A DNA stretch of 59,916 bases from a virus. Of this stretch, positions 2,608 through 47,874 are shown piece after piece (positions within the stretch are counted from its first letter, which is position 1; every line of letters begins with the position of its first letter). A model generated the notes under the pieces. The model was not told the DNA's origin, ran no database searches, and saw only the letters and a list, made by a program, of their open reading frames with translations. The stretch lies in UHGV virus genome UHGV-0126570. One strand, given 5' to 3'. Position numbers and translations under genes: made by a program.

Positions 2608-4537
2608 CAATCCTTTACGAATTAATATTCAGTCTACTTTTGCTGATACGATCCCCGGCTATATGCCAAGTCGCTGGTCTTCAGAAGAATTAAACGAAGA
2701 TGACCTGATTTTTGAGGCGGCGACCTTAGAAGATATTGAGCTTGCCTATATGGGCAATGAAATTCTGGTTGTGTCTGACGAAGCTATGTTTGAGTCCATA
2801 ACTACAACCAGAATTCGGTTAGCTCAAACAATGCGAGCTTTCGTCCGTGCGCTGAATCGTGGCCTGAATGGTACGAATATTATGGCAGGGACTGATGAAG
2901 CTGGGACCGATGAAAATGGACGTAATTGTATTGGTGGTGCGATTATCGGTCGTGTACGTCGGATAGCTAATATCCCTGTTTTGACCGCGCAGATACCGCT
3001 TACTGACGGGCAGAGTACAAGCATAATTTTCCACTCTCCAACAGCTGACGGGGCAAAAATAAAGAGTAACGACGAGCTTGTTGCATTTCAGTTTTTACTT
3101 AATAAGCGTAACGTAACTCACGTTGTCGCCCCGATTGGTGGGAGAGATGTTTCTTTAAGCCAGGTATGCCAGGCGCTATCTAATTTGATTGAGCGTAACA
3201 GCGAAAAATTTAAGAAAGCAAAAGAGCGCCAGGACAAAATGAAGGCAGATATTGAGAGTTATCTCAATGAAGCAGATAAACTGGCAGAAGAACGGTCAAT
3301 AATGATTGATCAGGTGGACGTTGCGCAACGTGGGCTGACTGAAAAGCGTGCTGCTCTTACGGAGATGCAAAAAAAACTTGATGCCCAGAAAGCCATCAAC
3401 GAGGAATTACAAGCAAAACGCGATAAATTGTTGTCTGCTAAAGGTGAAAAAACGAAAGAGCGAGCGTTTAGTGACCAGCTGCGACATGTAAAACATAATC
3501 TTGCCATTGACGGAAAAACAGTGCTGGATAATGGCGCTGAAGTTAATTATGTCACGTCCGGCAGTGACAATTTCGTTACGATAGTAGCACCTGAAGGTAA
3601 ATTCAGTATTGATGCCAGTGCTGTCAAAGGAGGCAGTTTGGCAGATGCTGCAACCAAATTACTTAAAGCCTACCGAGAGCATAACGCAGATAAATATAAA
3701 GTTGATGTGTTACCAGGCCAGCAGGAAGACCCCGAACCACCACAGACAGACCCCGAGACGAACCCAGTATCACAACCAGAGAGCCAGGATGTAGGTAAAT
3801 ACCACTATGCACTTCAATCTCGCCCGGCTGGTGTTGGTGCTGTGCCGGATGGAAATAAAGCCGTGCTTGATCGTCCTGACCAGGCTGATCAGTATTACGA
3901 ATATGCTCGTCACGGTATCATTACGTATGACCGTAAACTGACAGATGAAGAAGTCAGCCAGTACGAGTTGCTCTATCTTCCTGATGAAGATGAGCTGAAA
4001 GATTTTGCAGGCCAATTGGTTGTGTCCAGCATGTCGAAACATATTGATGGCTATGTAGACCTGTTTGGCAGTGACCTGAAAACATTCAAGGCGCAAGTGA
4101 AAATTCTTTTCCGCAAAGCGTTTCCAAACGTGGCGTATCCACTTGGTGATGGGGAGAACCTTTTCATTATGGACGTATATAACGCCCTTCAAAATCATTC
4201 AAACGAAGTAACGCCAGAGCCTGAATTAGCACCTGTAATTGAGCCAGAATCACACCCACAAACAGCACCAGAGCAACAGCCAACGCCGGAAGACGCTGAA
4301 GAAGCGGCAACTGAAGCTGATCAGGAAGCAGATAAAGCGTTGGAGTACCTTAAATCCGTCCCGGTGCAGTTTACATCTCGCGATCTGACGGTAATCAGTG
4401 CCGAACTTGACCATGTGCAGGAAGCTGCAAACGCTCTTATCAGTGCTGGTCGATACGACGAGAACGAATCAACGGTTGGCGCAGCAGTTGACTACCTGAT
4501 CAACATTCTGGCTGAAATTCAGCAGGGAGGTGCTTAA
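2600..4537 (+). CDS. Large hypothetical protein (645 aa), candidate virion-internal protein
   Basis: ATG at 2600 with GGAGG 6 nt upstream, overlapping the upstream stop (ATGATTAA). Central coiled-coil, acidic Pro/Glu-rich C-terminal linker. Size and operon context are compatible with a DarA-type head protein of P1-like phages; this is not verifiable by eye. Confidence 0.45.
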   Translation: MINNPLRINIQSTFADTIPGYMPSRWSSEELNEDDLIFEAATLEDIELAYMGNEILVVSDEAMFESITTTRIRLAQTMRAFVRALNRGLNGTNIMAGTDEAGTDENGRNCIGGAIIGRVRRIANIPVLTAQIPLTDGQSTSIIFHSPTADGAKIKSNDELVAFQFLLNKRNVTHVVAPIGGRDVSLSQVCQALSNLIERNSEKFKKAKERQDKMKADIESYLNEADKLAEERSIMIDQVDVAQRGLTEKRAALTEMQKKLDAQKAINEELQAKRDKLLSAKGEKTKERAFSDQLRHVKHNLAIDGKTVLDNGAEVNYVTSGSDNFVTIVAPEGKFSIDASAVKGGSLADAATKLLKAYREHNADKYKVDVLPGQQEDPEPPQTDPETNPVSQPESQDVGKYHYALQSRPAGVGAVPDGNKAVLDRPDQADQYYEYARHGIITYDRKLTDEEVSQYELLYLPDEDELKDFAGQLVVSSMSKHIDGYVDLFGSDLKTFKAQVKILFRKAFPNVAYPLGDGENLFIMDVYNALQNHSNEVTPEPELAPVIEPESHPQTAPEQQPTPEDAEEAATEADQEADKALEYLKSVPVQFTSRDLTVISAELDHVQEAANALISAGRYDENESTVGAAVDYLINILAEIQQGGA

Positions 4538-10313: not shown

Positions 10314-10726
10314 CCTGTGTGTCTACAAAACATCCCAATGATCGGAAAATGTTCGCTCGATGATTTGTATTAGAAAATTAATTTGCTGTTTCTAAATCGG
10401 AATGTATGATCTGCATCATCGACTGAAGTCATCCATTGCTGAAATTTTTAGTTGATCTTCCATGTTTTCAGGCTTATATTCATGCCGTCGTAGCAAATTC
10501 TGCGACCAGGTTTGACAGCCTGAATGTTAGTGCGGACAACCGCAGATTTCCGATATTGCGGTATTTTTGTGTCCGTAAACCGCGTTACGCCCGAATTATG
10601 GTGGGGCGTGATGGGGAGGCTTCGGCCTGCTGGTTTCACTAACGCCAGTCTGTCAACCCTGTCACGTCCTGCCACCTGTTTGACAGCGGGTAGCAGGTTG
10701 TTAAACCTGTTAGTGAGGCCGTAACT

Positions 10727-21353: not shown

Positions 21354-22562
21354 ATGAGTCAACAAACTGATACTTCTAATCTGGAAATCATCTCAGCCGC
21401 GATTGAAACGCTGCGGACACAGATCGCCCTTATTCAAAAGCGGAATCCGGGGGATGACCTGTCCAGACGGCTACATGAGAGCGTCATTGCCACTACTGAT
21501 AACCTGGTCGCGGAGATCAACCAGCTACTTGAGGAAGGGACGGTTGATTACAACAAGCTGGTGGATCAGTTTGAGGAATATCAACAAGCCGTTAATGATG
21601 GCTTGATCCGTTTTTCACAAGTCACAGGCGTATCAGCGACAGTTGAAAGTCTTGGCAATGCTGTTAATCAATTTGCCGCGAATATGCGTAGTGAGATCGG
21701 CAATCTGGAAGCGCGTCTTGAACAGGCAAACACACTGCGCAAATCCGCAGAAGCCGATTTGAGTCGTTACAAAAAAGACTATCCAGCCAGTCTGTCAAAA
21801 CGACTGGATGTTGCGGAGAAGGATAACCGTGCGCTGAAAAGAGAGCGTCGGGAACTAAAAGAGCGTTTAACAGAGCTGAATCAGCAATGCATTAAGTATC
21901 AAGGCGAAGGCGTCACACTGCGTAAAAAGTTAGCAGCAGCGCAGAACATTATTGAAACGCTGAAACGAGAGTGCTCACAGCTTGGTCATGATCTGAACCG
22001 CGCTTGTGGTATGGGACAAAGGCCAGAGACATTCCCGCTCATGTATGACGGGGTGGATGCTATTGCCTATATCCATGAGTACCCGCATGGTCTGGTTGCG
22101 GAGACTGGTCAGCGTGGTGAAGCTCTGTTGACGGCTAATTACCATCAACAAATTAGAACCAACCGCCTGCTGACGATGGATGTGATCCCATCAGTATGGG
22201 GAACGCCGCTTTACTATCGCCTGCCCGGCTTCGAAACGGACTGGAATACCGATATAGACGAATGCCTGGCAGATAAAATTATGGCGTACCTGGAGACTGA
22301 TTTCCCGCGCCTGCATCGCCGGATTATGGACTCTAAGGATGCGCCGATCGATGAATTGAAAATGCGCCCAGAGACGTTGGAAGCTATCAAACAGACTGCG
22401 TTTGATACCGTATTCAGCGTGGCCTGTATCCCAAGTAGTTTTCATGAAAGCATCCCCTTTATGCAGGGCGACCGTCGTCAAGAAATTATTGATGCCTGCC
22501 GGGTGTGGGCTAACGAATGGGACAAGAAGAATGGGGGCGTAGAAGATCTTTATGGGAAATAA
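21354..22562 (+). CDS. Hypothetical protein: N-terminal coiled coil plus C-terminal globular domain
   Basis: ORF track starts at 21270; the ATG at 21354 (MSQQTD...) lies downstream of the terminator and motif and has GGGA upstream. Confidence 0.5.
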   Translation: MSQQTDTSNLEIISAAIETLRTQIALIQKRNPGDDLSRRLHESVIATTDNLVAEINQLLEEGTVDYNKLVDQFEEYQQAVNDGLIRFSQVTGVSATVESLGNAVNQFAANMRSEIGNLEARLEQANTLRKSAEADLSRYKKDYPASLSKRLDVAEKDNRALKRERRELKERLTELNQQCIKYQGEGVTLRKKLAAAQNIIETLKRECSQLGHDLNRACGMGQRPETFPLMYDGVDAIAYIHEYPHGLVAETGQRGEALLTANYHQQIRTNRLLTMDVIPSVWGTPLYYRLPGFETDWNTDIDECLADKIMAYLETDFPRLHRRIMDSKDAPIDELKMRPETLEAIKQTAFDTVFSVACIPSSFHESIPFMQGDRRQEIIDACRVWANEWDKKNGGVEDLYGK

Positions 22563-23220
22563 TATGTTAGAAATCTAATTTCATCAAACGAACATATTGA
22601 TTGTGAGAGTAACTTAACTTAGAATTTTCCTTGCTGGTGGAGCGTTGCCACATTTCGCTTGCTGGGCTTGATAGTCACTTATTGGTTGTTGTTCGCCCAC
22701 CAGCAAATAACAAATTAAAGTGTTAGAAAATTACATGCATACAGGGACTCGCTTTGGCACCGAGCAAGCCAAAGTTCAGCAGGTTTAGTGCGTAAAGTGG
22801 TTTCAGAGAGAGCACTTTACGGAGTAAACAACAAGACATGTTGAGCCACGGAAGGTCTTTTTAAGATGTTCATTGATGATGGTCCGGCAGAGAGTAACGG
22901 GACTCGCCGCATCGAATCATCATCAATGCACATCCTCAACATTAAGGAGGCATAGGGATTTTTTTGTGGCGATTACCTTTTGCCCTAAGTCTCCTTAATG
23001 TTGCGGTAATGCACCTATGCGGATGCGGCCTTGCATTGTGTCTTGAAAGAATGGGGTAAGGCCGGGGATATCCCCAGGGGGAGGCACCCCCGCTGCAACG
23101 AACAGCCACAGACGGCAGTCGAGTGATGGAAACGTGCAAAGACTTTAAACCTCGTTACGGCTGGCGTGGCAAACGCGACAACCGAGACAGAGCGGTGACG
23201 GGCGGAGAGAGTGCCGCATC

Positions 23221-23341
23221 AAGAAAGAAGCCGACTTGTGATCCCTTTCTGCGGGCATTTGAAAGTGAATCCAGCTCAGGCAGTCGGCTTCTTTCTTGTG
23301 TGAGATGTAGCGTATTTGCCCATCTTCGGGTGGGCTTTTTT
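23221..23341 (+). ncRNA. Candidate small structured RNA (16-bp stem-loop plus intrinsic terminator)
   Basis: AAGAAAGAAGCCGACT (23221-23236) pairs with AGTCGGCTTCTTTCTT (23282-23297); then GCCCATCTTCGGGTGGGC followed by TTTTTT (23318-23341). The overlapping 85-codon ORF (23123-23380) runs through both hairpins and is probably not coding. Confidence 0.3.
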
Positions 23342-23801
23342 AGGGTTTTCGTCATGGTTAGCGACTTTGCGGCGGTTTAGAACCCGACCATTAAAGTAAA
23401 TGCAAACGATGATCTGATGATGGTAGCGGCCTAAGAAGCCTGACGCCACGGGGTATGAGTCGTCCCCCGTCAAAAAATCGACCGCAGAGTGTCCCCGTCT
23501 GTGTATTAGGGAACGGGGAGGCATAACAGGCAAGGGCGCTGGTGTGATTAACCAGATGAATGAGAAGGGTCAGGTCTTTCTGGTCAGCGCCCTTACCTGT
23601 TACGTCCCTCCCGCGTAACAGCCATTGATTAATGGCTTTCTGGGATAACATCCTACTACGGGTATATCCCGTCATGCTGAAGGCGCTAATCACGCTGGAA
23701 GCCAGGGTTGTGCATCCCCTGTTACCGAATTGCAGCCAGGGCGCGGTGCGCCGAAAAGCATACGGAGGTGGAAGCCCTCGCCGGAGACGTAACCGGCAAG
23801 T

Positions 23802-23878
23802 GATGGTGTAGCTCAGTAGGATAGAGCAGCAGCCTTCTAAGCTGTCGGTCGGTGGTTCGAATCCACCCACCATCGCCA
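23802..23878 (+). tRNA. tRNA-Arg (anticodon UCU; decodes rare AGA)
   Basis: Manual cloverleaf: acceptor GATGGTG/CACCATC, D-arm GCTC-AGTAGGATA-GAGC, anticodon stem GCAGC/GCTGT with loop CTTCTAA, T-arm GGTGG-TTCGAAT-CCACC, encoded CCA. Confidence 0.8.
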
Positions 23879-23880
23879 AT

Positions 23881-23956
23881 GCCGGTTTAGCTCAGTTGGT
23901 AGAGCGCCTGCCTTGTAAGCAGGATGTCAGCGGTTCGAGTCCGTTAACCGGCACCA
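23881..23956 (+). tRNA. tRNA-Thr (anticodon UGU)
   Basis: Acceptor GCCGGTT/AACCGGC, D-arm GCTC-AGTTGGTA-GAGC, anticodon stem CCTGC/GCAGG with loop CTTGTAA, T-loop TTCGAGT, encoded CCA. Confidence 0.8.
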
Positions 23957-23964
23957 ACACAACA

Positions 23965-24039
23965 GGTAAGGGTATTTTGCGACGTCGGAGATCGCCGTGC
24001 TTGGCAGAGGGTTCGAATCCCTACGAAGTACCCTTACCG
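23965..24039 (+). ncRNA. Non-canonical tRNA-like element (acceptor-like stem plus T-loop, no canonical D/anticodon arms)
   Basis: GGTAAGG(G)...GGGTTCGAATCCC...CCCTTACC: a 7-8 bp terminal helix and a perfect T-loop consensus, but the interior cannot be folded into a cloverleaf. Either a tRNA pseudogene or an RNase P-type processed regulatory RNA. Confidence 0.3.
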
Positions 24040-24421
24040 TTGTGATGAAGTGCAGCTCTTTGAAGCAACCAGAAGATAAGCATCTGGCTTCACAACATAA
24101 ACCGCAGGAACGACCAATAAACGGTAGTCCGTATGGAGAATACCCCGTTGAGGAAGAGGCCTGGCCGGAACCGTAACCGGCACTACAACGTTGAGAACAC
24201 TGACGTAACGGGGTCATATCCCAATCTACGAATAAATGTTGCGTTGCAGCGTGACAACCAGTGTTCTCAACGTTGTGGTGGATTCGCAGACTGATGCGAT
24301 AGCTTTCTTGGATGTTAGGGAAATGCGGCCGCAAACCTTCCCTTTCGCGAGCGGTGATCGTCCGTAGTCCTAATTGGCTGCACCGTATGCCGGAGATTCA
24401 GTACCGGCCACCACAACGGCC

Positions 24422-24508
24422 GGAGAGTAGGGAGCATGGTGCTCAAGCGGTCTTGAAAACCGTCCCATTGCGCAAGCGATGATGGTTCGATTCCATTACT
24501 CTCCGCCA
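24422..24508 (+). tRNA. Probable type II tRNA, tRNA-Ser (anticodon UGA)-like
   Basis: Acceptor GGAGAGT/ACTCTCC, anticodon arm GCGGT-CTTGAAA-ACCGT (close to E. coli serT), 17-nt variable region, T-arm GATGG-TTCGATT-CCATT, encoded CCA. D-arm and variable arm are atypical. Confidence 0.55.
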
Positions 24509-24775
24509 GCGCAACGTTAAGAGTATTTGGCTAATTAAGCGAATGCCGGAAGCAGAACCGGATCAACAAATGCGTACAGGCGTCATCGCCGCCCAGCCAG
24601 CCAAGTGCTCTTACCATTGCGGTGAATGCGGCTAAGCGCACGCGGAACAGTTAAAACAATCCTCCTTAGTGGTTAAGTCAAACATCCCGGCGTTAATTGT
24701 TAACTGGTTAACGTCACCTGGAGGCACCAGGCACCGCAACCTAATAAATACGTCATGTTTATTGAGGGATAACCA

Positions 24776-25210
24776 ATGTTCGGTAAATTTTTCGGTAAGA
24801 AAGTCGCTTCAGCAAAAGTAGAGCTGAAAAGGGTTGAGAATCGCGATCTGATGGAGGCCATTATCGGTGGCTGTTTGTTGGTGTCTGCCGCAGATGGTGA
24901 AATCGAAAAGGAAGAAACAGCGAAACTTGATCAGCTTGTCCGCTCTAATCCTCGCTTAAGTCATTTTGGCAACGAAATTACCGCAACAATCACCCGTTTT
25001 ACTGAGCAACTGGAAGCTGGTTTCCGTGTTGGTCGCATGAATATCCTTCGCGAAATTGAAGATATCAAAAATGATCCAAAAGAAGCGGAAGAAGTATTCG
25101 TTAACATGCTGACGATTGCAGAAGCGGACGGTGAAATCGAGCCAGCAGAACACAAAGTACTGGAAGAAGTAGGCCGTCGTTTGGGCCTTCGTGTGGAAGA
25201 TTATCTGTAA
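24776..25210 (+). CDS. TerB-like domain protein (tellurite-resistance TerB / TciA-like)
   Basis: 144 aa with the paired acidic helices typical of the TerB fold (...LLVSAADGEIEKEE...LTIAEADGEIEPAEHKVLEEV); GAGGG RBS. Adjacent to the tRNA-Ile2 gene, as tciA is adjacent to trnI in P1. Confidence 0.65.
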   Translation: MFGKFFGKKVASAKVELKRVENRDLMEAIIGGCLLVSAADGEIEKEETAKLDQLVRSNPRLSHFGNEITATITRFTEQLEAGFRVGRMNILREIEDIKNDPKEAEEVFVNMLTIAEADGEIEPAEHKVLEEVGRRLGLRVEDYL

Positions 25211-25374
25211 TGATTGGCAAGGCGCGTATTGCGTGCGCCATTGGTTTTCTCGTTTTGTCCGTGCTGGTGGATTTCACCAGCAAAGTGATGTCGGTGTTGG
25301 CTGATGGGGCACTGGTTTCAGTAGCTGTGGTATTGCTATTGCCGATTATTAAAGCTGCGTTCAGGAACTCATGA
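25210..25374 (+). CDS. Small membrane protein (54 aa), not in ORF track
   Basis: Start overlaps the upstream stop (TAATG); MIGKARIACAIGFLVLSVLVDF...VAVVLLLPII has two hydrophobic helices. Confidence 0.4.
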   Translation: MIGKARIACAIGFLVLSVLVDFTSKVMSVLADGALVSVAVVLLLPIIKAAFRNS

Positions 25375-25484
25375 TGGATTTTTGGACGTATATTGATAAG
25401 AACCCTGGATGGTCTTTGCTATTTCTTCTTGTGATCGTATACGGAGTAGAACAAGTAGCGAAGAATCTCAGGCGTCGAAAATAA
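25371..25484 (+). CDS. Small membrane protein (37 aa), not in ORF track
   Basis: ATGA overlap with the previous ORF; MMDFWTYIDKNPGWSLLFLLVIVYGV...RRRK has a single TM and basic tail. Confidence 0.35.
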   Translation: MMDFWTYIDKNPGWSLLFLLVIVYGVEQVAKNLRRRK

Positions 25485-25493
25485 AAACTAATT

Positions 25494-25569
25494 GGCCCCT
25501 TAGCTCAGTGGTTAGAGCTGGCGACTCATAATCGCACGGTCACCGGTTCAAGTCCGGTAGGGGCCACCA
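25494..25569 (+). tRNA. tRNA-Ile2 (anticodon CAU, lysidine-type; decodes rare AUA)
   Basis: GGCCCCTTAGCTCAGTGGTTAGAGC...CTCATAA...GGTTCAAGTCC...AGGGGCCACCA; acceptor and D-arm essentially identical to E. coli ileX. Cannot be formally distinguished from elongator Met by sequence alone. Confidence 0.75.
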
Positions 25570-26022
25570 TATTTGGTTGTAACACGGCGTATGGCACATG
25601 CGTCGTTAGCGGTCTGGTGACGTTATAGGGGTTACCTTTTCCCCTAGCTCAGGCAACAAACCAGGTAGCCGGAATGTGCAAGCCCCGTTCATATCGTCGG
25701 ACCGAGGACTCACCATCCTGGCGATTCGGTGTGACAGCCGGAAGAGTACGGCGCACAACAGGAAAAGGCGTTTAATTAACGTGAGCGCCGTTTCCGTTGT
25801 GGTAATTGCGGCTATGCGCTCGTGACGAAGCCATTTTCATTCACTACGTTCTGATAAGTGACGTCGCCAGGAGTGGCTAACCTGGCAGGTGGAGGCACCA
25901 CCGCCACAACTCCTTTCAATTCATCATATAGCCGCTCAGGCTGTAACCCTTAATTAATACGAAGTTTCGACATCTCTATCGGTTTAACCGAGGGATGGTC
26001 GCGCGTGTAAAAAGGAGACGTT

Positions 26023-26598
26023 ATGTTAACGGCGAACGATAACGCGTATGCAGAAGCAGATCTCATATTGAGTGACTTCATCGGTCAGCGGGAACGCTGG
26101 ACACAAAAGCGAGAGGAACTTTATGCCTCGTTAGTTCGCAAAGGTGTCAACATTGAAACCGCTCAAAGCGGCGATATGACGGTAGTCAGTGTTGGATTAC
26201 ATGGTGTGAGCGTGTCCGCAGCCAATCATGAGCCATACGTAGCGTTATCCGAGTCGATGGCAAGGCTAATTAAGTTTCTGAAGCAAACAGAAGCCAATAA
26301 TGTTTTCATCGCCAAAAAGAACATCAATTTTTCTGCCGCCATGTTCTGGATGATGAAGGGGCTGGATGCCCGCCGGGCATCATGGCCTAAAGGGAGCTAT
26401 TTATCGATGTTCCGTGGCAGCATTGGCAGCAAAGAAAAGCTCTTCGAATTCTTGCCGGAAGAGGCATTCGATATTGTGGAAGGGTGCGATGTGATGGTTA
26501 TGCCTCGCCTGGTAATGATGAATGGGGATTTACAGGCGCAGACAGACTGGTTCGCAACTGGCGTGGATATTATCGCAACTGACTGGGAGGCATTCTGA
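26023..26598 (+). CDS. Fusion protein with C-terminal DUF2829-like (Tad2-like) domain
   Basis: C-terminal AAMFWMMKGLDARRASWPKGSYLSMF ... MPRLVMMNGDLQAQTDWFATGVDIIATDWEAF follows the DUF2829 signature as recalled from memory; N-terminal ~100 aa unassigned. Confidence 0.4.
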   Translation: MLTANDNAYAEADLILSDFIGQRERWTQKREELYASLVRKGVNIETAQSGDMTVVSVGLHGVSVSAANHEPYVALSESMARLIKFLKQTEANNVFIAKKNINFSAAMFWMMKGLDARRASWPKGSYLSMFRGSIGSKEKLFEFLPEEAFDIVEGCDVMVMPRLVMMNGDLQAQTDWFATGVDIIATDWEAF

Positions 26599-44219: not shown

Positions 44220-44926
44220 TGATTGCCCCCTTCCCTAAGCTGTTCTGCACAATGCAGCAGCGCACCTGTCGCATCTTTAAGCGTCACTAGCTCGTCATCA
44301 TCCAGTCCTACTCCCCTCGCGTCCCTGACAAACGCCGCGCAAAGGTCGTTAAACGCCCCCGCCCGCACTTCAGCCAGGAAAGCGCCAGTAGCAGGGGTGT
44401 CAATGCAAACACTGTCACGAAGGATGAAGAACGCATTAAGCATTCCTCTTTCTGGTACATCGTCCTGGCATTCCTCATATGCAACCAATGCATCCATCAT
44501 TTTCTGACCGAATTGCTGAGGGTGTGCAGATTTCAGTGCTATATTCTCCGCCGCCAGCGTCGCGCGATTGCTCTCCAGTTCTGCAATGCGCTGTTTTGCG
44601 GCATCAAGTTCAATCGACAATTTTTCCAACTGCTCTTTATGCTTTTTGTATGCCTGATATGCGTGCCAAGACTGTCCTTTGCGCACACTTTCAGTAATAT
44701 CAGAAATCTGTTCTGGTGTTAGCGTGGTCAGTGGCTGCGCTGGGGAAATCAGCACTTTCCCGGAATCCCAATCAAAACCAGCGTGAATTGACTGAACCTC
44801 AACTGAGGGTGTTGAACCAATGCTGCCAGGCGAATGAACAACGATCGTTACATCCATATCGCGACGATGGCTGTGGTTGTTGGACAAAATACGATTCACC
44901 AACTCAGAAAATTTGGAAAATTTCAT
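44216..44926 (-). CDS. Ea22-like mosaic protein (paralog)
   Basis: Start moved to the ATG at 44926 (ATGA overlap with the upstream stop). Coiled coil [14 protein letters not shown] and C-terminal ...FLAEVRAG...[10 protein letters not shown] shared with 41054-41641. Confidence 0.45.
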
Positions 44927-47562: not shown

Positions 47563-47667
47563 AATACTGACTGTTGCGCCATGGCATTATCGTGGGGTAT
47601 ATTTCTACGGCACCTTAGAAAAACGGGTGCCGGGATTGGAACCCCGGATAATGTCAAAGGCGACACA

Positions 47668-47689
47668 GACGCCGAAAGCGTCTTTTTTT
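47668..47689 (+). terminator. Rho-independent terminator
   Basis: GACGC-cgaaa-GCGTC followed by TTTTTTT. Confidence 0.7.
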
Positions 47690-47874
47690 GTGTCATGCCA
47701 TCGCACAGCCATACGTAGCGTTTAGCTCAGAGATCAATGGTAGTGCTGGCTGGGCTGCCGAAAGGCAGGCCGGTTCCCTTTGACGCCGGTAGTTCCAACC
47801 CAGTCAGTGCTACCGCCATTGAGATTGGAACCTCACGCGGTAGCTCCTTAACTTAGTCAAAGGAGGCTGCCAAT

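Follow-up and report, generated by a model that had tools for sequence, protein, structure and literature searches.

What is the short element that lies between tRNA-Thr and tRNA-Ser in the tRNA cluster of the virus genome UHGV-0126570, and why does it resemble a tRNA without an anticodon arm? The stretch of DNA analysed here, called the window below, is 59,916 nucleotides long, and its tRNA region spans 23.5-25.8 kb. A first-pass annotation had described a 75-nt element at 23965-24039 and offered two identities for it, a tRNA pseudogene or an RNase P-processed regulatory RNA analogous to C4 of phages P1 and P7. We find that the element belongs to a large family of RNA hairpins in which a conserved scaffold stem of ~20 bp encloses an interchangeable interior, and that phage lambda carries a homologous hairpin in its late leader. 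The reading we favour, with roughly even confidence, is that the element would serve as an RNase III-type processing or insulating hairpin in an untranslated tRNA operon. The features on which the argument turns are the following.

23802-23878, + strand: tRNA-Arg(UCU), which reads AGA (ARAGORN; Rfam tRNA model, 72.1 bits)
23881-23956, + strand: tRNA-Thr(UGU), which reads ACA (ARAGORN; Rfam tRNA model, 74.9 bits), the same gene as P1 tRNA2
23958-24044, + strand: scaffold hairpin with a tRNA-like interior (5' arm 23958-23979, 44-nt interior 23980-24023, 3' arm 24024-24044)
24422-24508, + strand: type II tRNA-Ser(UGA), which reads UCA (ARAGORN)
25494-25569, + strand: tRNA with a CAU anticodon, an ileX-type tRNA-Ile2 called 'Met' by ARAGORN (Rfam tRNA model, 66.2 bits)

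The helix GGTAAGGGTA/TACCCTTACC of the first-pass annotation is present, as is the T-loop GGTTCGAATCC at 24010-24020, and there is indeed no anticodon arm. The helix is, however, ~21 bp long and not 10 bp: CACAAC-A-GGUAAGGGUAUUUUG pairs with CGAAGUACCCUUACC-GUUGUG over 23958-24044, with one bulged A and two G.U pairs, and the folding energy is -41.7 kcal/mol (z = -5.35, 200 shuffles). The statement that a D arm is missing does not hold, as a D-arm-like hairpin (GCGA / CGUCGGAGA / UCGC) occupies 23979-23995. Only 12 nt separate it from the T-arm, which consists of AGGG (24008-24011), UUCGAAU (24012-24018) and CCCU (24019-24022). The 3' strand of the long helix starts one base after this T-arm, and a GTTCGAATC-type T-loop stands on an acceptor-type helix. 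In the minimum-energy fold the T-arm is formed in the P1/D6 variant of the sequence and not in that of the window. A tRNA gene it is not: it goes uncalled by ARAGORN, and a 2.7-kb search with the Rfam tRNA model gives no match to it at E<=10.

Conservation of the element reaches 98-100% in dozens of P1-like contigs and in P1 and D6, the last two of which differ by one substitution. In P7 the interior is unrelated, 19 nt shorter and devoid of a T-loop, while the stem is kept by two T-A to C-G double changes. Both interior hairpins are identical in Enterobacter phage BUCT554 and in locus L118, despite a different, compensated inner stem. The persistence of the hairpins within a changed stem argues for selection on the interior itself.

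The family was collected in three scans of IMG/VR, one with the stem-initial 15-mer and two with other parts of the unit. Its members share a hairpin of ~20 bp of the form ACAAC-A-GGUAAGRGYAUU... / ...RGUGCUCUUWCC-GUUGU, with consensus arms ACAACAGGUAAGAGCAUUG ... CAGUGCUCUUUCCGUUGU. At least 201 forward copies were found in at least 168 loci, and their interiors, 9-170 nt long, fall into at least 54 (approximately) unrelated clusters. The element has the family arms (ACAAC-A-GGUAAGRG... / ...CUYUWCC-GUUGU) and a stem of at least 15 bp around the variable interior. When 56 distinct arm pairs are aligned by their arms alone, pairing is seen in 84% of cells, compared with 37-59% in slid registers, the percentage being inflated by a finder that needed at least 15 outer pairs and by the fixing of one arm in two of the three scans. 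Ten pairs change on both sides in the same alignment, and pair 17-34 is U.G in 42 of the 56 arm sets, where the other strand would give C.A. The covariation of the inner stem and the G.U asymmetry are independent of the fixed-arm scans and of the finder. Wherever a tRNA lies within 500 nt of a scaffold copy, it is on the same strand (103 of 103 such copies among the matches listed). Together with the G.U asymmetry, this constant orientation indicates that the structure is an RNA feature of the transcribed strand.

The surroundings of the scaffold are also patterned. A small GC-rich hairpin, or in some copies an intrinsic terminator, usually precedes it, and GGUGAAU with another small hairpin usually follows. 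T-arm-like hairpins occur in 7 of the 54 interior clusters and in one of their reverse complements (shuffles: mean 0.44, maximum 3). The interiors of Klebsiella phage Magnus and of locus L173 are near-complete cloverleaves. In L173, a 39-kb phage, a variant scaffold GCAACGAUGAGAGCAUUUUUG ... CAAAAGUGCUUUCAAUGUUGUGG at 3660-3790 surrounds an almost complete cloverleaf with a GGUUCGAUUCC T-loop and is followed by a canonical scaffold, a DicF-like sRNA and two terminators, making up a dense island of noncoding RNA. A weak DicF-like match (24.5 bits) follows a scaffold copy in a phage other than that of the window.

A single 41-nt variant, comprising the 3' arm and the downstream hairpin, is present in 90 GenBank phages and in 628 of 5,426 complete E. 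coli genomes, in none of which does an annotated feature cover it. Its hosts include T1-like siphoviruses (Bas79/80, 6947), 157-kb Ackermannviridae (Klebsiella phage Magnus, UPM 2146), mEp460, Stx phages and phages of Erwinia, Hafnia, Cronobacter and Enterobacter, and the scaffold as a whole occurs in lambdoid, Stx, T1-like and ViI-like phages. All cases examined lie in untranslated leaders: right behind a tR'-like terminator, in the interval from the Q antiterminator gene to the holin gene (lambda and an E. coli prophage); past a cI-like repressor, with the first early gene 40 nt further on; in Magnus among tiny doubtful ORFs upstream of tRNA-Met/Arg; or adjoining DicF-like sRNAs. The element conforms to this pattern, lying untranslated on the + strand between tRNA-Thr and tRNA-Ser and co-oriented with them.

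The lambda copy lies at 44,788-44,862, directly 3' of tR', and is present in the centroid fold of the lambda leader. Its arms, ACAACAGGTAAGAGCATTG ... CAGTGCTCTTTCCGTTGT, correspond to ACAACAGGTAAGGGTATTTTG ... CGAAGTACCCTTACCGTTGT in the window and agree with those of the element at 15 of 16 outer positions on each side. The leader that follows the lambda hairpin is homologous to window 24530-24600, just after tRNA-Ser. The two differ in that the lambda interior is unlike that of the element and has no T-arm, and in that the lambda hairpin belongs to a Q-dependent late leader and not to a tRNA cluster. It is partly covered by 'orf-64' (44,621-44,815; 822-1016 in locus L343), an annotation that also extends over 6S RNA and tR'. 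Lying over these features as well as the scaffold's 5' arm, orf-64 probably does not encode a protein.

No Rfam family matches the scaffold at E<=1, either in the window or in lambda, and no earlier description of it was found in the literature. The recognition of this widespread, unannotated hairpin-scaffold family, which lambda shares, is new, though not a categorical novelty without experiments. It is a large RNA family without an Rfam entry that is also found directly after tR' of the best-studied phage, lambda. It connects two kinds of setting, the leaders (late and early) of lambdoid phages and the tRNA islands that P1-like and large virulent phages carry. If the interiors are functional, the family would also offer a testable route to new phage small RNAs.

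What might such a hairpin do in a tRNA operon? The interval 23.5-25.8 kb can be read as one long, mostly untranslated transcription unit on the + strand, comprising four tRNAs, structured RNA modules and the genes tciABC. The stem of the element, at ~21 bp, has the length of about two turns of double-stranded RNA expected of an RNase III substrate. RNase III sites classically take the form of a helix of ~20 bp beside tRNAs in a polycistronic transcript that is for the most part untranslated, and it is on this anatomy that the proposal is based. A cut in the element would separate tRNA-Arg and tRNA-Thr from the downstream RNA. The scaffold tolerates and exchanges its interior segment, and cleavage would release that interior, here a conserved mimic of a tRNA with a D-like hairpin and a T-arm and no anticodon arm, as a small RNA.

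Precedents for such stems exist in E. coli. The processing stems of the rrn operons are cut by RNase III. Cuts by the same enzyme next to metY are described as freeing that tRNA (PMC5371410). Both the 16S/23S stems of rrn and the hairpins after metY in metY-nusA-infB are helices of ~20 bp in a polycistronic transcript beside tRNAs, and they enclose or adjoin an RNA that is to be released; the likeness is one of anatomy, no sequence similarity being claimed, and they have no counterpart of the interchangeable interior. In lambda late RNA, RNase III reportedly has processing sites in vivo (Daniels et al. 1988, cited in PMC7547250), and these may map to the scaffold hairpin. A parallel to the element itself is found in the tRNA cluster of phage T4, which encodes small stable RNAs (species 1 and 2, rnaC/rnaD). 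These too are structured non-tRNA RNAs among phage tRNA genes, and partly tRNA-like, but no common scaffold holding variable interiors underlies them.

Several points weigh against the processing hairpin. P7 lacks the T-arm interior, which makes the interior dispensable for a viable phage. Between unrelated phage families both arms keep their sequence (95-100%) and not just their structure, and T-arm-like hairpins recur among the interiors (7 of 54 types); a plain processing site explains neither. The percentage of paired cells is inflated as described above. The cleavage itself is proposed by analogy, and the RNase III sites of lambda may lie elsewhere in the leader.

The near-cloverleaf interiors, the recurrence of T-arms, the conservation of the arms and the selection on the interior keep alive a reading in which the interior is a functional small RNA. 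In one form of this reading, which we consider unlikely, the scaffold does no more than present the interior, which is a released trans-acting RNA, either a tRNA mimic that would titrate a tRNA-binding factor (a defence nuclease, or a modification or processing enzyme) or an antisense regulator like C4. The mimic would account for the enrichment of T-arm-like hairpins on the transcribed strand and for the near-complete cloverleaves of Magnus and L173. The wholesale swaps of interiors are what an arms-race component would be expected to show, and the tRNA in the neighbouring first slot of the cluster switches among Asn, Arg and Tyr. Most interiors, however, carry no tRNA-like feature, and P7 and an empty scaffold copy at 25755-25800 do without such an interior. 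As for the antisense form, C4 RNA (RF01695), an RNase P-processed regulator, is phage-encoded and long-stemmed like the element and is found in the same type of genome, but the Rfam C4 model matches the window at 10594-10679 and 47733-47820 and not at 23958-24044, even at E<=10. The analogy with C4 is thus not borne out. Complementarity to the interior within the window amounts to seventeen 9-mers and six 10-mers, compared with 20.3 and 4.7 expected from shuffles, so no antisense target stands out from chance; the sole complementary 11-mer is the palindromic T-loop of tRNA-Arg. The suggested processing by RNase P also finds no footing, as no conserved RCCA-like 3' end follows the helix. The element was considered as an RNase P minihelix as well: CCCU comes after the seven stem pairs that adjoin the T-arm here, CUCU in the related Enterobacter-phage copy, and the RCCA-like feature is therefore not conserved.

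The two proposals may be combined, in that RNase III would free interchangeable small RNAs, many of them tRNA mimics, which would act in trans, with cassettes being exchanged between the conserved arms. We rate this 'display scaffold' as rather unlikely. If true, the released RNAs could, for example, be decoys for tRNA-targeting defence nucleases or for tRNA-handling enzymes, and the scaffold would be a bacterial-virus counterpart of the 'present and release' logic of pri-miRNAs.

A decaying tRNA pseudogene is a quite unlikely explanation. By this account the element descends from a tRNA between Thr and Ser that has lost both its anticodon arm and its function, and its flanks pair by accident. 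The parts of a tRNA are certainly there (an acceptor-like helix, a D-arm-like hairpin and a perfect T-loop, with no anticodon arm), ARAGORN and Rfam reject the element, and P7 lacks the T-arm part. A decaying gene would not, however, be 98-100% identical in its interior across P1-like phages, nor keep the same two hairpins in a 40-kb Enterobacter phage that is unrelated and whose stem is different and compensated. Around the interior, the stem belongs to a conserved scaffold, found with ~54 other interiors among the matches listed, and no full-length tRNA relative of the element was found in 50,697 phage records. The term pseudogene is thus half right, for the tRNA-derived form of the D-like hairpin and T-arm, and too simple.

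It is improbable that the scaffold is a signal for transcription elongation, in which the 3' arm UGCUCUUU and a GU-rich stretch would correspond to boxA and boxC of rrn and lambda and recruit Nus factors against Rho termination. The commonest 3' arm does contain UGCUCUUU, the core of rrn boxA, the modules are always in long untranslated leaders, often right after a terminator, and the preceding hairpin has loops of the GAAGA type. But the motif is base-paired in the stem, a single-stranded boxA of the GCUCUUUA type does not occur in the element, which has UACCCUUA while UGCUCUUU is confined to lambda-type copies, and beyond GUGCUCU there is variation among the copies that a probe lying outside the arms picked up. 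Nor is the scaffold the put element of HK022: its arms are absent from the HK022 immunity region, and the put region looks different.

Slightly more improbable still is that the arms act as DNA, as inverted-repeat handles for recombination or as ends of a small mobile cassette that shuffles interiors and tRNAs. The arms are 95-100% identical in unrelated phage families. In some P1-like contigs the P1-type and P7-type modules stand one after the other, separated by 215 bp, and the spacer between them is also found in lambdoid late leaders; P1 has the first interior and the 3' flank of the second module, P7 the second interior and the 5' flank of the first. These halves fit a deletion by recombination between repeated arms. 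Such recombination requires no dedicated function, however, and the strand-asymmetric G.U pairs and the constant orientation to tRNAs point to selection on RNA. Compared with a miniature inverted-repeat mobile element, the scaffold has the inverted arms but also differing interiors, a G.U asymmetry of the RNA type and a fixed orientation. The conserved arms do work, intentionally or not, as handles for cassette exchange. The last alternative, that the stretch is the 3' end of a minus-strand protein gene, is a very remote one: P1 records annotate plp, a putative lipoprotein, over it and a 135-codon minus-strand ORF is present at 23927-24334, but this ORF starts with TTG, runs into tRNA-Thr and reads 'DSN' from the reverse complements of two T-loops, the D6 record has no gene there and the P7 record no plp, and the 19-nt shorter P7 interior would shift the frame.

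The gene plp is probably not a gene. In P1 the sequence of the 75-nt element is annotated as its C-terminus, and plp and probably also upl run antisense over tRNA-Thr, the 75-nt element and further scaffold hairpins (window 23927-24334, - strand; 2031-2600 in L003, which is P1). A further scaffold copy, AACAGGTAAGAGCATTC ... GAATGCTCTTTCCGTTG, lies under upl in P1. Three annotations may therefore not be genes, since they cover RNA structures of this kind: plp and, probably, upl in P1, and orf-64 in lambda.

The element is one of four scaffold copies in the window, all on the + strand (23516-23612, 23958-24044, 24185-24276 and 25755-25800). The other three copies and the small GC-rich hairpins (hp1) that accompany the modules are listed below.

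23516-23612, + strand: upstream scaffold hairpin AUAACAGGCAAGGGCGCUGG ... CAGCGCCCUUACCUGUUAC (read from the sequence; forms in a 1-kb fold)
23780-23797, + strand: hp1, a small GC hairpin GCCGG-AGACGUAA-CCGGC, preceding tRNA-Arg (read from the sequence)
24164-24181, + strand: hp1 copy GCCGG-AACCGUAA-CCGGC, followed by ACUACAACG (read from the sequence)
24185-24276, + strand: scaffold-like hairpin with an 18-bp perfect stem ACAACGUUGAGAACACUG ... CAGUGUUCUCAACGUUGU, its interior with a GGGGUCAUAUCCC hairpin
24389-24408, + strand: hp1 copy GCCGG-AGAUUCAGUA-CCGGC, followed by CACCACAACGG directly before tRNA-Ser (read from the sequence)
25737-25752, + strand: hp1 copy GCCG-GAAGAGUA-CGGC, followed by the empty scaffold
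25755-25800, + strand: 'empty' scaffold hairpin, with a loop as its sole interior

The upstream module, with CACAACAGGTAAGGGCGCTGG arms, is present in at least 43 P1-like contigs. The hairpin at 24185-24276 lies inside the ORF named plp in P1 and is ~100% conserved in D6, P7 and P1. Syntenic counterparts of the empty copy in other phages have interiors of 45-66 nt. The equivalents of hp1 in other phages covary, as GCCGG/CCGGC, CCUCG/CGAGG and GCCUG/CAGGC.

The setting of these modules is that of a known locus. Over window 23400-26100 the identity to Escherichia phage D6 is 97.5%, P7 and P1 reach ~92% over the aligned parts, and a 91.7-kb E. coli plasmid (NZ_CP034790.1) matches window 23740-24530 at 100%. 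By its nucleotide identity the window is a phage-plasmid of the P1/P7/D6 type, and its cluster is the tRNA/tciABC region already known from these three phages. The first-pass annotation was right about a cluster of four tRNAs and overlooked both this known region and Asn as the usual occupant of its first slot. The gene order, tRNA-Thr, tRNA-Ile2, tciA/B/C and the 75-nt element are common to the window and to P1, P7 and D6, where the tRNAs are tRNA1-Asn, tRNA2-Thr and tRNA3-Ile, with tRNA-Ser additionally in D6 and P7. Slot 1 of the window differs, holding Arg(UCU) and not Asn(GUU). The records of these phages nowhere annotate the hairpin modules as RNA, and those of P1 name part of them plp. 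The flanking genes are arranged as in D6 (a pmgS-like gene upstream; orf6, orf5, lpa and pacA downstream) and not as in P1 (dmt, ban). The protein-coding part of the region, on the same strand as the tRNAs, and its leader are as follows.

24509-24775, + strand: untranslated leader of tciA (alignment with lambda; STnc100 match)
24776-25210, + strand: tciA, terB-like (ORF list; D6, P7 and P1 annotations)
25210-25374, + strand: tciB (ORF list; D6, P7 and P1 annotations)
25374-25484, + strand: tciC-like ORF of 36 codons (read by hand)

The four tRNAs of the first-pass annotation are all called by ARAGORN, which finds exactly four in the whole window, on the + strand. The Rfam tRNA model scores tRNA-Arg, tRNA-Thr and the CAU tRNA at 66-75 bits. 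The earlier reading of the CAU tRNA as an ileX-like tRNA-Ile2 agrees with the P1 record, which gives the homologue, trnI, as 89% identical to E. coli ileX. Its acceptor stem is GGCCCCU/AGGGGCC, with C4-G69 and C5-G68. These pairs and the CAU anticodon are features recognised by TilS. The tRNA would accordingly be predicted to read AUA after conversion of C34 to lysidine.

The tRNA-Ser is more unusual. The Rfam tRNA model does not report it at the gathering score, the best Rfam match being tRNA-Sec at 46.6 bits against a cut-off of 47, and its amino acid is not called by tRNAscan-SE in the D6 record. It has G73, the pairs G1-C72, G2-C71 and A3-U70 in the acceptor GGAGAGU, and a variable arm whose stem of 6 bp is capped by a GCAA loop. 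The D-arm resembles that of tRNA-Sec, with A8 in place of the canonical U8, a 4-bp stem and a 5-nt loop, and an 8/4 fold (8-bp acceptor and 4-bp T-stem) may be drawn. The gene is present in D6 and P7 and not in P1. The pairs of its variable arm are kept in variants (19 loci; A-U to G.U, U.G to C-G), which indicates that the gene is under structural selection. Copies ~83% identical to it, together with ~90 nt downstream, occur in the ~131-139 kb phages phita32, HMD-6, ECP32 and EduardKellenberger.

The codons read by the four tRNAs were counted in 45 non-overlapping long ORFs of the window (13,822 codons). Per thousand codons, AGA is used 6.0 times, AUA 10.6, ACA 14.8 and UCA 13.2. The corresponding averages of E. 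coli K-12 are about 2-3 for AGA, 4-5 for AUA and 7-8 for both ACA and UCA. The direction expected of codon compensation, as proposed earlier, is thus seen for all four tRNAs, with cognate codons ~2-3 times the K-12 averages. It is plausible that the tRNAs supplement codon use, in which case they would supply decoders for AGA, ACA, UCA and AUA, codons that the phage uses 2-3 times more than its host.

The Arg-for-Asn switch in slot 1 is new relative to the known P1/P7/D6 cluster. The Asn(GUU) tRNA of P1, P7 and D6 has the same acceptor stem (GATGGTG/CACCATC) and the same flanks as the Arg(UCU) tRNA of the window. One Asn variant, GATGGTGTAGCTCAGCGGTAGAGCAGTTGGCTGTTAACCAACTGGTCGGTGGTTCGAATCCACCCACCATCGCCA, is identical to Arg(UCU) except in the D-loop and the anticodon arm, the acceptor stem, D-stem and T-arm being held in common. 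The D-loop is C-GG-T in Asn and TAGGAT in Arg, by which A20 is gained, and the anticodon arm is replaced. The identity elements of ArgRS are A20, C35, U36 and a purine at 73. The slot-1 Arg tRNA has A20, from the D-loop AGUAGGAUA, the anticodon UCU, with C35 and U36, and a discriminator G; its Asn relatives are without A20. This would be a clean natural identity change, touching exactly the identity elements, and its pattern suggests either a natural alloacceptor switch or a core swapped by recombination on a constant tRNA body. The Arg tRNA of the window occurs in none of 50,697 GenBank phage records, where the best full-length matches are Asn tRNAs at 80-83%.

Among the 55 P1-like contigs listed, slot 1 is mostly Asn, with Arg(TCT) in five, the window included, and optional Tyr(GTA) and Ser(TGA) tRNAs are present or absent. 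In some P1-like contigs (L038, L048 and L078) slot 1 is separated from tRNA-Thr by an additional tRNA-Tyr(GTA) of type II. The switch in slot 1 and the optional tRNA-Tyr and tRNA-Ser show that the locus is a swappable decoder slot. The tRNAs for Asn, Arg and Tyr are targets of known anticodon nucleases (colicin E5, colicin D and retron-PtuAB). An anti-defence role may therefore be an alternative to codon supplementation.

Further observations concern the leaders of the region. Window 24530-24600, after tRNA-Ser, aligns with the lambda late leader just 3' of the lambda scaffold hairpin. Window 24618-24738 resembles Rfam STnc100 at 39.4 bits, under the cut-off of 47. This leader, upstream of tciA, and a second at ~25801-25900, upstream of the D6 orf6 homologue, both begin with GGUGAAU/GGUAAUU and a small hairpin and end with a GGAGGCACC-containing strand. 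With a tRNA or a scaffold hairpin ahead of each, the two make up a composite leader that is repeated.

Upstream of tciA, ~2.2 kb (22563-24775) is without a convincing protein gene as far as the pmgS-like gene. According to the annotations of P1 and P7, the tRNA/tciABC region is part of the C1-controlled ban operon; the P1 C1-operator consensus, with up to 3 mismatches allowed, has no match in the whole window. One promoter-like site lies at 22597-22625. The stretch 23219-23343 holds an inverted repeat of 17 bp without mismatches, CAAGAAAGAAGCCGACU ... AGUCGGCUUCUUUCUUG, and after it a strong intrinsic terminator, GCCCATCTTCGGGTGGGC with T6. This stretch corresponds to the place of the 'dicF-like region' in the P1 record; DicF itself has no match in window 22500-23820 at E<=1.

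Elsewhere in the window there are two separate genes for C4 antisense RNA, the matches at 10594-10679 and 47733-47820 (68.8 and 77.1 bits with the Rfam C4 model). The first has an upstream a1/b1 target site (10474-10526) and the second is preceded by an isrK-like RNA (47610-47688, 62.7 bits), so that one phage-plasmid carries two immI-type modules of antirepressor control.

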